Positions 23,505 through 26,500 are shown, counted from the stretch's first letter. The stretch: 64,000 bases of DNA from an uncultured bacterium (GCA_964385615.1 CAYLPP010000003.1:139288-203287), one strand, 5' to 3'. The notes: generated by a model from the sequence alone, not told the origin. A program made the numbers and translations.

Positions 23505-26500
23505 TTAAAACCGGGTGGAGTTACGTTTTAAAAATTTCAAAAAAGGATTATCACTTTGATCTACCGTCAAAAACGCTGGGCTTTCCTGAAATTTCCCAGC
23601 ATCATAGTTATTATCCCAAGAATGATACGTAAGTACTTTAGGGGAATAAATCAAACCAGATGCGATTCTAAATGGGTTCAGCGTGGAAGAAAGATTCGGA
23701 ACCGCATCTCTATAGTCAATTTTATAGCTAACGGATCCTACACCAGCTAAATTGGCACTTAAAGTCCCCCGAATTTTTGACACAGTCGTAGCATCATATT
23801 CCACGCCTGAAATATTTGTAAGCATCTGCCCTCTTTTAGCCACTTCAAGTAAAGCATTACTTAAAATAACCGTTCCCTGGCTATGAGCATCAACAGCTAT
23901 GCGATTTCCATATTTATTCAAAAAAACCAAATCGTCCGCCACTTGTCTTGAAACCGCACTAGGAATAATCGGTCCCAAAAACTTATCCAAAGCAAATTCG
24001 GTTAAATCTGCCAATATTCCCGAACTAGGATTGTATCTCACCGCAACCCCCGTACTTGCCCGGCGAATTGCATCATTCCGAGAGGTGCTAACTCCATTAA
24101 CTTTATAGAATTGAATATTAGCAAGTATTGCACGTAATTGATTAGGATCTTTTATTTGAGATTGCAGATCCTGCAAGCTCTTAAAATGGCGCCCATCCGG
24201 GAGATAAATCTCCGATCCTTGCTTAAAAAGAAACTCCTGAATCCCTAAAATAGGGAAAAGAGCGACCTGCCCTATCTTTTGCAATAGACTAGCTTGACCA
24301 TTTGGGCCTGAAGCTGTCGGATTAAAATTTCCAATTGTTTCAATAACAGATCCGACTTTATTCGCCGCGATTTTAAGAATATTAAAATTCCCACCGTCCA
24401 AATCAACAATTTTGAATAAACTATTTGCCGTATTGGAAATCTGGTAAGCAATTTTAACGCCTCCCGCTACTACTGTCTCAAAAAAAGCAGCGGTACCGGA
24501 AGTGTTGAAGTTAATTTTTTCAACAACCGCAGTAATTGGATTATTAACTAATATGGATTTAATGGCTCCGCCGGCGTCTTTCAGGAACTTTGTAACGCCA
24601 TTCTTTAAATCGTCAAAGAAGCCGAAATTTGCCTGCTGGCCGGTGGGCGGACCGTTATTGCCGGAAGCTCCAATTCCCAGGGCATTATTGATATTTTTTG
24701 CAGCATATGAAGCAACCTGGCTTCCAACCGCTTCTATGCCGACATTGGCGACTGTGCTTAAAACGCTTTTCCAGAATTCGCTCATTTTGCTTTTCTGAAT
24801 CTGCTGATCCACTTTCTGTTCAACAAGATTCAATGCGAATTTCTTCAGCGTATTAGCCACCAGCTGTGTAAACCCGCCAACCGAACTTAACCCCTTAGTC
24901 GCTCCGCTAATTAAATTTTTATAGCCAACAAGAGGATTAATCTGTTCCTTCAAGCCGTTAATAAAAGCCTGCTGAAGGTTTTGAGGTTTAAACGCCTGGA
25001 ATATTTTCTGAAGACTGCTTCCAAGATTACTTAAAGCGCTGGATATATTGTTGACCGCGCTTTGAAGAAGATTGCTTCCAAAAGTAGCCACGCTTTGCCC
25101 AAATGAGGAAATCGCCCCGCCCAAGCCGGAAGATAACCCGCCTATCACATTGCCGATCCCAGAAATGACTGTCCCGACGACCTGTATGATAGCGCCAATC
25201 ACGGCTTGAATCGCGCTGAAGACGACCTGAAGGATGGCGTTAAGAATCGCCCCGATAATTTGGCCGATCACCGGGATAAATATCAGAACAACCTGAATTA
25301 CAACCTGAAGTGCCGTCATCGCCCAGTATTTAAACAAGCCCTTAAAATCACCGCGCTCCGCGTAGTGATAAGAATTGATAATAAAGTTAAAAGGCTGATT
25401 CAAAATTCCGGAAATGAAATTCCCAACGGTTTTACCGAAGATAGCGACTGCCACTTTATTAATGGTCGCCACGATCTTTTCGATCAGCTTAATTACCGGC
25501 CTGAGAACTTCGACAAAGAAATGAACGATTTTCTTGAATAGCTTGCTGAACCAGCCGGCCCCCTTAACCTTTAAAAGGTCTGACGAAGCCAGATCGTTTT
25601 CAGGATTAAATCGGAATACCTGGGTGCCGAAACGGTAAAACCGCATCGCGTCAGAATCGTCTAAAATCGGAAGATTCAAGGCCTGCAACTGCGCCGCCGT
25701 CAAAAACACAAACCCGGTAAACAACGCGCCGAATTCCGTTTCTGAAAGCTGTTGATCAACACCGTTTTCGCGGAAAGAAACCGTTCCCCCGCTGATCTGC
25801 ACCAGTTCGACAAAACGAGTTGCCGTATCGTTTGGATCGGCAGCGTTTTCCTTAATTAAAACGGTAATCGGTTCATTGAGAGACGCAAGCGTATCGGAAA
25901 GTTCCGTGTAACTCTGCGAAACTTTATGAAGACGCGTTCCAGTTTGAACAAGCGCGAAACCAAACCATTTGGCTCGGAATTCCGCGATTGACTTAGTGGT
26001 GGTGTGACCATTCTCAAGGAAGGTCACGGTCGTATCCGTGATCGCGGTTACGACAACGTAATGGCGCTCTTCAATATTTACGATCACCGGCAGACCACTG
26101 ACAGTCACGAGACGAACCAGGTCTTCCCAGCTTAACTTAAAGCCCTGAATTCCCGCGTTATTCACCGCAGCCACGGTTTTCAAGTTATAGGCTGAAAACT
26201 GGAGGTTTCCGGTAAATTCGGGAGAAATGACCCCCGTAAGAATATCGACGAAGAGCGCTTCGGTCGTCAATTCGGGGAGGCTGGGAGCAGTTCCAAAAAT
26301 ACTTAGAATCATTTCCTGCACGGAGTGCATGGCCGACTGACCAAAATGAATATCTTCATCAATCAAGTCCATAAGTCTGGACTTAATCTTATCTAGATCG
26401 GCTGAGGTCAACTCCGCCATACTGAAAGCGGTATCCGCTTTGAGAAGTTTTAAAAGGTTCTCGAATTGCGGATTCAACGTTCCATTCGCGAATCCGAAAA

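Follow-up and report, generated by a model that had tools for sequence, protein, structure and literature searches.

A hydrophobic helical block behind an internal double-glycine site in a giant bacterial protein: a probable membrane-embedded element of a putatively self-released C-terminal fragment

The question raised by this locus is what purpose is served by a long hydrophobic segment that is located near the C-terminus of a giant protein, between a peptidase-like domain and an unannotated terminal region. The locus belongs to a stretch of 64,000 nucleotides (nt) from an uncultured bacterium (GCA_964385615.1 CAYLPP010000003.1:139288-203287), which is referred to as the window throughout; all DNA coordinates are window positions unless a contig is named. 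An earlier note, made from the DNA alone, described a glycine-zipper segment of about 70 uncharged residues at 25130-25330 and suggested that it makes the C-terminal fragment released by the neighboring peptidase membrane-active. On the minus strand, this segment corresponds to amino acids (aa) 7568-7635 within one intact open reading frame (ORF) of 8,175 aa. In its general form, namely that the segment is a membrane-embedded element of a C-terminal fragment processed at a double-glycine (GG) site, we consider this answer probable. Its more specific form, a bacteriocin-like insertion into the membrane of a target cell at the start of a self-released toxic fragment of 683 aa, is proposed tentatively, with a chance that we put somewhat below even. 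The features on which the first part of the argument depends are the following.

23505..48032, minus strand: giant ORF, 8,175 aa, 24.5 kb (ORF reading and Pfam)
25134..25337, minus strand: hydrophobic helical block, aa 7566-7633, about 68 aa (19-residue Kyte-Doolittle means, KD19; AlphaFold2, AF2)
25008..25328, minus strand: uncharged run, aa 7569-7675, the second half of which is rich in Gly, Ser, and Asn and is not hydrophobic (residue count)

The uncharged hydrophobic segment is real and longer than first noted. The run without D, E, K, or R spans 107 aa (aa 7569-7675) and is the longest of the giant protein, exceeding the runner-up (41 aa) 2.6-fold. KD19 values above 1.6 extend across aa 7566-7633 with a maximum of 2.49, and elsewhere in the protein they are found just in the N-terminal signal-like segment and in a short stretch at aa 137-158. 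The block holds two or three membrane-length helices with a break at P7587; its composition is dominated by Ile, Val, and Gln over Gly and Ala, and the Gln residues form a ladder (positions 7576, 7580, 7591, 7602, 7609, and 7617). The repeated (G/A)xxx(G/A) spacing that had been attributed to the segment disappears in comparison with composition-preserving shuffles, which give 5.3 expected pairs for the 7 observed (P=0.24) and 1.6 expected GxxxG motifs for the 3 observed (P=0.2). Instead, the shuffles reveal a seven-residue repeat, both for Gly at i,i+7 (7 vs. 1.56 expected, P=0.0002) and for Gly, Ala, or Ser at i,i+7 (22 vs. 12.7 expected, P<0.0002), along with a weak enrichment of G/A/S at i,i+4 (18 vs. 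13.1, P=0.03). Polar residues (Q/N/S/T) recur at spacings of 3-4, 7, and 11. The seven-residue periodicities of small and polar residues point to alpha-helices with one small or polar face, rather than to a textbook GxxxGxxxG zipper.

The AF2 model of the C39-like/hydrophobic region, which was obtained with a 24-sequence alignment, is entirely helical after the predicted cut site (aa 7494-7559, 7563-7584, and 7587-7627) and contains no beta structure, so that the confident buried beta-rich core named in the earlier note as the contrary outcome is not what the model gives. No DNA tandem repeat was found when looked for in the block region; the reading of the "IQVV" reiterations as such a repeat was rejected, and the block is therefore not a simple expansion. 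The resemblance to colicin/VasX pore-forming helices or Tc/RHS translocation segments found no support either. When the hydrophobic piece was compared with Pfam and NCBIfam, with E allowed to rise to 10, only noise was returned and no colicin, VasX, ABC_membrane, or Gly-zipper family, and homology to known pore or translocation domains was rejected on these grounds. The sub-threshold matches included Baculo_PEP_C (24.7 bits, cut-off 38), EI24/CysZ, SseD (E=0.38), and tip/translocon proteins of type III secretion systems. Scanned with regular expressions over its entire length, the ORF shows no DPxG[LWIV], that is, the Rhs core-end motif (PxxxxDPxGL) is absent, and the same scan finds neither VENN nor PAAR motifs.

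The central new feature is located upstream of the block in the protein, where a leader-like motif and a cationic helix separate it from the peptidase-like domain.

25557..25592, minus strand: internal double-glycine leader L7481-A-S-S-D-L-L-K-V-K-G-A7492 (LASSDLLKVKGA, followed across the predicted cut by GWF; family logo, PMC6363468)
25356..25556, minus strand: cationic amphipathic helix, aa 7493-7559, GWFSKLFKKIVHFF... (AF2 model residues 280-345, predicted local distance difference test, pLDDT, 63-83)

Double-glycine leaders read by the C39 peptidases of peptidase-containing ATP-binding cassette (ABC) transporters and of ABC-transporter maturation and secretion proteins (PCAT/AMS) have GG, GA, or GS as their last two residues and follow the pattern Leu(-12)-x3-Glu(-8)-Leu(-7) (PMC6363468). 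The motif considered here, 12 residues long and ending 74 aa upstream of the hydrophobic block, fits this published consensus with L-12, D-8, L-7, V-4, G-2, and A-1. Unlike the usual GG leaders, which stand at the N-terminus of a short precursor and are cut in trans, it is internal (aa 7481-7492 of 8,175) and belongs to the same chain as the C39-like domain. All family counts of the site and of the catalytic positions refer to 151 sequences, namely the best 150 hits of the module profile described below and the query. In 134 of them the double-glycine pattern is situated directly past the C39-like domain, with the following conservation relative to the cut.

Position -12: L in 109/134
Position -8: E, Q, or D in 117/134
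Position -4: I or V in 131/134
Position -3: R or K in 126/134
Position -2: G in 133/134
Position -1: A, S, or G in 134/134

The remaining informative positions are less strict, being mostly S/T/N at -11, F/G/C at +1, and W/F/L at +2. From this pattern we infer cleavage after A7492; the predicted scissile bond joins A7492 to G7493, and the predicted freed fragment comprises 683 aa. The segment that would become its N-terminus is strongly cationic, with 10 K/R versus 4 D/E and a net charge of +6 over aa 7493-7565, and it includes the highest 18-residue hydrophobic moment of the giant protein (0.72 at aa 7510, P<0.0005 vs. shuffles). In the subfamily to which the query belongs, a cationic amphipathic helix (GWFKKLFKKI...) precedes the hydrophobic block.

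The domain that would perform the cut is recognizable by profile, model, and fold comparison.

25941..26348, minus strand: C39-like peptidase-fold domain, aa 7229-7364 (Pfam PF03412, AF2, Foldseek)
26334-26336, minus strand: S7233, at the Cys position (family alignment)
26061-26063, minus strand: H7324, at the His position (family alignment and PCAT1 alignment)
26013-26015, minus strand: E7340, at the acid position, 16 residues past the His (family alignment)
25683..25880, minus strand: degenerate repeat of the C-terminal C39-like half, lacking the His (RFVELVQI...TVSFRENG), aa ~7385-7450 (alignment)

The Peptidase_C39 match covers aa 7279-7362 (30.1 bits, cut-off 22) and is partial, since profile positions 45-128 of 133, the C-terminal two-thirds, are aligned. 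The hydrophobic segment is indeed flanked as described earlier, by this peptidase-like match on one side and by an unannotated C-terminal region on the other, and Pfam and NCBIfam searches with the last 476 aa of the giant ORF gave no match. AF2 assigns a pLDDT of ~90 to aa ~7235-7365, and a Foldseek search with the model retrieves the LahT150-leader complex 6mpz (TM-score on target 0.65, root-mean-square deviation 3.8 Å, 131 columns) and also PCAT1. The family profile matches the PCAT1 sequence with E=3.4e-8, with the HFVV and DPG motifs aligned. The degenerate half-copy is shared with one relative (P0012) and is absent from most others.

Three catalytic columns are nearly invariant in the family. 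The nucleophile column contains Ser in 126, Cys in 14, and Thr in 1 of 141 sequences or domain copies; S7233 belongs to the invariant motif HFGxSA, in the first turn of AF2 helix 15-32, and its equivalence to the catalytic Cys is taken from the family alignment and not from structural superposition. The His column is occupied by His in 150 of 151 sequences, H7324 being part of RHYVVV, which aligns with the PCAT1 HFVV motif. The acid column contains Asp in 80 and Glu in 64 sequences: E7340 is found here in "FLENG," most relatives have Asp in "YIDPG," and the spacing of 16 residues between His and acid equals that in the aligned PCAT1 sequence. Judged by these columns, the domain is not a canonical cysteine C39 peptidase and may represent a natural Cys-to-Ser switch in a papain-like fold. 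Since Ser, His, the acid, G-2, and the small residue at -1 are all near-invariant, these positions argue for catalysis over mere binding. The link to a release peptidase that had been drawn in the earlier note is made considerably stronger by the conserved double-glycine leader directly past the C39-like domain, which that note did not mention; the cleavage itself is predicted.

One further alignment touches this domain. The HMMER alignment of the family profile ran past C39 into the first transmembrane (TM) helix of PCAT1 (TM1, ~190-215), pairing ALGIAGSFYIKFLFDDLIKF (25480-25560, minus strand) with "qkirGAgWF..lfkkivkf" at low accuracy; this run-on may be due to chance or may be a trace of descent from the PCAT N-terminal region. 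A derivation of the block from ABC-exporter TM helices was not adopted, because the TM1 alignment is of low accuracy and its score stems from the C39 part.

The combination of leader, C39-like domain, and hydrophobic block is a family property. A word-index search with the last 976 aa retrieved six proteins, and the four with a source name are all from Omnitrophota. The alignment of these relatives defines a module conserved over aa ~7132-7904, which ends at IGN(L/F) and beyond which nothing aligns. An exhaustive search of 1.84 billion representatives with the module profile yielded 638 proteins at E<=1e-3, of which 313 reached E<=1e-10 and 135 reached E<=1e-30. Most proteins with the module are 2,000-7,000 aa long and carry it 600-1,000 aa before the C-terminus. 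All named members (6/6) among 20 representatives looked up belong to Candidatus Omnitrophota, as do all three loci found in a species-level genome collection. The three relatives scanned over their whole length have LamG, RHS, FG-GAP, or CBM domains, then a partial C39 domain, and then nothing recognizable.

A block with KD19>1.6 within 200 aa past the site was found in 121 of the 126 members with enough sequence (median span 58 aa), and in 90 of these 121 it begins within 10 aa of the site (e.g., GA followed across the cut by FFFFLIPAIIGA...). What is conserved at this place is hydrophobicity and not sequence. The family blocks contain 16% Gly, 15% Ala, and 8% Ser, and over 89 members the spacings of G/A/S at i+4 (z=12.3) and i+7 (z=11.7; 11-12 for small residues at i+7) are strongly enriched, that of Gly at i+4 more modestly (z=3.0). 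Recurrence of small residues at i+4 and i+7 fits tight helix-helix packing.

A set of standalone homologs (P0002, P0003, P0021, P0070, and P0090) shares a near-identical signal peptide (MKLKFLRL..FHQLSFA.PIS) that is joined to the module at differing points, with the full module retained (P0003) or the junction lying within C39, behind the amphipathic helix, or behind the hydrophobic block; two of the corresponding loci are L001 (2247-4994) and L007 (1729-3690). These homologs look like products of cassette reshuffling, either deletion or recombination derivatives or orphan cassettes. In L007, a metagenome contig of 3.8 kb, the C-terminal 391 codons of P0070 are present in two copies (77-1252 and 1729-3690), which could reflect either duplication in tandem or a small circular element that was assembled with a wrap-around.

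Past the hydrophobic block lie ~540 aa, which comprise a conserved linker and a variable tip and are followed by a small ORF.

24321..25007, minus strand: conserved linker or "pre-tip," aa 7676-7904, ~230 aa (alignment, no known family)
23508..24320, minus strand: variable tip, aa 7905-8175, GC content at third codon positions (GC3) 0.325 (alignment, BLAST, and codon composition)
22956..23501, minus strand: ORF of 181 aa with an N-terminal signal peptide, starting 4 nt past the stop of the giant ORF, GC3 0.324 (ORF reading and composition)

The linker is marked by the motifs LNPxxxY, QKxDQxIxKSKMxxFxKSxLSTV, PPTG, LKDAGGxIKS, DGG, and IGN(L/F). The tips that follow IGN(L/F) are unrelated or mosaic between members in all-against-all BLAST comparisons; P0002 and P0031 have just the last 124 aa in common, and the tips of P0004 and P0018 are alike just in their initial part. 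When the word index was searched with the last 290 aa of the giant protein, no relatives came up, and the only relative of the window tip, obtained from the profile search, is the P0070 tip with 37% identity. These two tips share the motifs YxxNG, AHSQGT (S8051), D-x-VPN, and H-x-W, which at the motif level would correspond to the Ser-Asp-His order of an alpha/beta hydrolase. Tips of other relatives gave weak DUF4329/JAB and DUF2380 matches and one HExxH motif.

GC3 is 0.47-0.53 in the body of the giant gene and in neighbor genes, compared with 0.325 in the tip and 0.324 in the 181-aa ORF, and the low value common to the latter two suggests that they were acquired together. Variability and foreign composition are what a toxin tip would be expected to show. 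Small ORFs are also found tightly downstream in L001 (127 aa, with an N-terminal hydrophobic segment) and in L004 (99 aa, without a signal peptide and followed by a transposase), and P0070 is followed in L007 by a lipoprotein-like ORF of 117 aa. Where checked, the downstream ORFs, including that of the window, match no known immunity family. The 181-aa ORF is a candidate immunity protein.

The giant ORF as a whole reads as a large surface protein. Its signal-like N-terminus is followed, according to Pfam, by RHS/YD repeats (PF05593, E=1.4e-40), six LamG_3 and seven F5/8-type-C (discoidin) domains, and ILEI and dockerin domains, and then by the C-terminal module; ABC_membrane and ABC_tran have no Pfam match in it. 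The signal-like segment is as follows.

47916..47969, minus strand: N-terminal hydrophobic h-region, aa 22-39, VIAGILVITFVSTQVLWG, signal peptide or signal anchor (KD19 1.75 and sequence reading)

The surrounding genes are of the housekeeping type (fumarase, heme synthesis, MreB/RodA/PBP2, and a P-type ATPase), and the sole ABC protein nearby has ABC_tran and ABC_tran_Xtn domains without an ABC membrane-domain match. Several other observations were made in this region. Near the N-terminus of the giant ORF, a JAMM/MPN-like motif HTHPNEHSAQGPSGLD (H-x-H...S-x-x-D; aa 183-204, 47421-47486, minus strand) is present in a region without a Pfam match at E<=0.01, and the P0003 tip, which has a weak DUF4329/Prok-JAB match, contains a similar HTHPN motif. 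Two LamG-type segments of 194 aa (aa 5214-5407 and 4831-5024; 31812-32393 and 32961-33542, minus strand) are 95% identical in protein sequence, which indicates a recent internal duplication or gene conversion. An ORF of 560 aa coding for a GH39-like glycoside hydrolase (E=6e-16; 21211-22893, minus strand) is located directly downstream of the pair formed by the tip and the small ORF. A plus-strand ORF (25206-25541, 111 aa, TTG start) overlaps the hydrophobic segment and is regarded as a mechanical ORF inside a well-supported gene.

Beyond the observed anatomy, conservation, periodicity, helical prediction, variable tip, and compositional break, we infer that the block inserts into a membrane, that the membrane concerned belongs to the target and not to the producer, and that the tip acts as a toxin. 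The giant RHS/LamG/discoidin part would provide adhesion to prey and targeting. After export, the C39-like domain would bind the leader helix and cut past A7492, and the resulting 683-aa fragment would bind a lipid surface through its new cationic amphipathic N-terminus. The hydrophobic helices would then insert, probably as an oligomer or bundle packed via the small-residue face, and their insertion would either damage the target (prey) membrane or carry the tip to its site of action. In its working, the whole module would be comparable to a bacteriocin of class II or of the Cdz type that carries its leader peptidase in the same chain and is prolonged by a toxin. The most far-reaching version of this scheme, which we regard as rather doubtful, is an unrecognized class of Omnitrophota polymorphic toxins, in which a serine variant of C39 would self-cut a giant adhesin and the exposed hydrophobic N-terminus, like a viral fusion peptide or a bacteriocin, would drive an exchangeable tip into the prey membrane without an injection apparatus.

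A number of observations weigh against this scheme. A papain-like fold that carries Ser may lack activity, like the Cys-less C39-like domain of HlyB. In the AF2 model, pLDDT falls from ~80 to <50 along the block, being <50 from about aa 7610, and the model is not confident enough there to define a hairpin. Simple translocon-scale sums for the block are positive, from +1.9 to +5 kcal/mol, owing to its Gln, Gly, and Pro residues; these sums used the values of Hessa et al. (2005) without position terms, are indicative only, and leave Sec insertion of the giant protein neither assured nor excluded. The blocks of many relatives are very hydrophobic, with KD19 up to 3.2 and uncharged runs up to 139 aa, and the Sec translocon would probably integrate such blocks into the producer's own membrane. 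Two of the standalone homologs (P0021 and P0090) keep the signal peptide, the linker, and the tip without the hydrophobic block, which is thus not indispensable in every form. The window tip belongs to no recognized toxin family, as it has no Pfam match and no significant profile match among PDB sequences, and its AF2 model, based on a two-sequence alignment, has a pLDDT of 35. A search with the 181-aa ORF finds only itself, and the ORFs beside the two related tips (window and P0070) share no similarity with each other. Finally, secretion or ABC-export genes were not found among the neighboring genes.

The extreme hydrophobicity of some relatives is met by a different reading of the block as a stop-transfer anchor in the producer's cytoplasmic membrane, so that cleavage at the GG site, if any, would shed the ectodomain and launch no toxin. 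We hold this to be rather unlikely, although it is the main rival and corresponds to the usual interpretation in the literature of long Omnitrophota proteins that combine a signal peptide with TM helices. The hydrophobicity of the block (KD19 up to 2.49 here and 3.2 in relatives) clears classical TM thresholds, its position is kept in 121/126 members, and the N-terminal signal-like segment would export an ectodomain of ~7,500 aa. Published passages on Omnitrophota agree with such an anchor: those of a 2026 survey (10.64898/2026.06.07.730766) class 39% of long Omnitrophota proteins as having a signal peptide and TM helices, describe inner-membrane-anchored architectures, and present PF03412-bearing proteins as the largest architecture cluster, and passages of West-Roberts et al. 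(10.1101/2023.11.21.568195) refer to C39-like domains together with TM anchors close to the C-terminus. However, an anchor leaves unexplained the ~540 aa past the block, with their variable tip of foreign composition and the paired small ORF, as well as the strongly cationic amphipathic helix on the exported side and the bacteriocin-type leader exactly where the hydrophobic part begins. An orientation with the N-terminus outside also runs counter to the positive-inside rule, since K/R are richer on the N-terminal flank (2.7 vs. 0.7), the residues concerned doubling as the cut site.

The other readings concern the peptidase-like domain and the physical nature of the block. The C39-like domain might be a non-catalytic docking clamp on the leader-like helix, similar to HlyB, in which case no cut would be made and the helices would be a permanent element of the intact protein. 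The Ser in place of the catalytic Cys in 126/141 sequences, the Cys-less C39-like domains known to bind without cutting (summarized in PMC6363468), and the alignment of the Pfam profile over the C-terminal two-thirds alone are all in line with a clamp. Nevertheless, we consider it improbable, as Ser, His, and Asp/Glu are near-invariant, as are the Gly at -2 and the small -1 residue, two positions that are important for cutting and not for binding, and a minority of domain copies retain Cys in the same column. A role of the block in aggregation or surface retention, with SDS-resistant aggregates of the CdzC type holding the toxic fragment on the producer for contact attack, has a precedent in the Cdz system, where a G[G/A/S] leader is joined to such regions (PMC5380434), and would suit the Gly, Ala, and Ser content of the family blocks (16, 15, and 8%). 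It is nonetheless very improbable given the continuous helices of the AF2 model, an i+4/i+7 periodicity that is helical and not that of a beta-strand, and the dominance of Ile, Val, and Gln over Gly and Ala in this block. To the view that the block is buried as the core within a soluble domain, or arose by compositional chance, and has no membrane role we attach hardly any credence: AF2 confidence is low in part and the translocon-scale sums are positive, but the property is kept at the same place in 121/126 relatives despite low sequence identity, the uncharged run is 2.6 times as long as any other in 8,175 aa, and no beta structure is predicted. The membrane-embedded element of a GG-processed fragment remains our preferred reading.

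Omnitrophota are ultra-small bacteria that have not been cultured and that apparently live as predators or depend on hosts, and their giant proteins are a recognized knowledge gap. For these proteins, the module offers a testable anatomy, namely the cut site between A7492 and G7493, the residues S7233/H7324/E7340, the 683-aa fragment, and a family of hundreds of proteins. If both cleavage and insertion are true, the double-glycine/C39 system would span the range from small peptides to megadalton self-acting proteins, papain-like peptidases would include a documented case of a natural switch from Cys to Ser, and prey attack would have a mechanism without machinery of the type VI secretion system (T6SS) or contact-dependent inhibition (CDI) type. 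A self-translocating weapon of this kind, if true, would be suited to ultra-small predatory or epibiotic cells. If the block is a plain anchor instead, the GG site would still define the shedding of giant surface proteins.

Taken singly, the parts of the module are familiar, be it the C39 fold, the GG leader, the membrane helices with small residues, or the polymorphic tips. What was not found described is their combination in a single chain inside a giant adhesin-like protein that has Ser as the nucleophile residue and lacks an ABC transporter and Rhs/CdiA/T6SS hallmarks. C39-like domains and TM segments are mentioned, with their roles left open, in passages of West-Roberts et al. and of the Omnitrophota survey, and the keyword-retrieved passages of these two sources contain no mention of the GG site, the Ser switch, or the variable tips.

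Among the systems to which the module can be compared, the pore domains of colicins and VasX have in common with it the general idea of membrane-entering hydrophobic helices alone; they differ in context, no profile or sequence match was obtained at E up to 10, and there is no sign of a ten-helix bundle. The large clostridial toxins TcdA and TcdB also combine, in one chain, an autoprotease domain with an adjacent long hydrophobic helical delivery region. In these toxins, the enzymatic head is N-terminal and is itself released, and the protease belongs to another cysteine protease family and is activated by inositol hexakisphosphate (InsP6). By Pfam, they show no similarity to the giant ORF. 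In the T6SS effector Tde1, a glycine zipper is needed for membrane permeabilization and entry into prey (PMC10240207). Elements of the Tde1 type have small-residue helical motifs tied to a toxin and serve to permeabilize and cross the cytoplasmic membrane of the prey, which is also the working model for the block; however, they are short, are placed at a native N-terminus, are delivered by T6SS with adaptors or chaperones, and have no sequence relationship to it.

The polymorphic toxins (Rhs, CdiA, and MafB) are alike in their huge repeat-rich N-terminal part, the conserved pre-tip, the unrelated or mosaic tips with a drop in GC content, the small ORF directly downstream, and the presence of truncated standalone cassettes among relatives. 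In contrast to them, the giant protein has no DPxGL aspartyl-protease motif, PAAR, VENN, two-partner secretion (TPS), or other listed trafficking domain; its putative release device is a Ser-type C39-like domain with a GG site, and its immunity gene is a candidate only. C39-like domains were listed by Zhang et al. (2012) as toxin tips (Tox-PL-C39) only, and not as releasing peptidases (PMC3482391).

Further parallels are found among bacteriocins. CdzC and CdzD of Caulobacter, in which hydrophobic glycine zippers are joined to a G[G/A/S] leader, act as contact-dependent killers (PMC5380434). The similarity consists in a leader with G[G/A/S] at its end, in the hydrophobic stretch with many small residues behind it, and in the proposed membrane damage upon contact. 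The Cdz proteins differ in being 60-151 aa long, exported by a type I system, built of true GxxxGxxxG repeats, and devoid of an enzymatic tip, whereas the block considered here has mainly a seven-residue periodicity and belongs to a giant protein that starts with a signal-like segment. The PCAT/AMS C39 domains (PCAT1, LahT150, and ComA), which process class II bacteriocins, share with the module the peptidase fold, the His and the acid 16 residues further on, the leader motif, and a hydrophobic or amphipathic cargo past the site. In the giant protein, by contrast, the ORF lacks an ABC transporter domain and has no transporter gene in its vicinity, the leader is internal and Ser replaces Cys, peptidase and substrate are united in one chain, and the cargo is extended to 683 aa with a variable tip.

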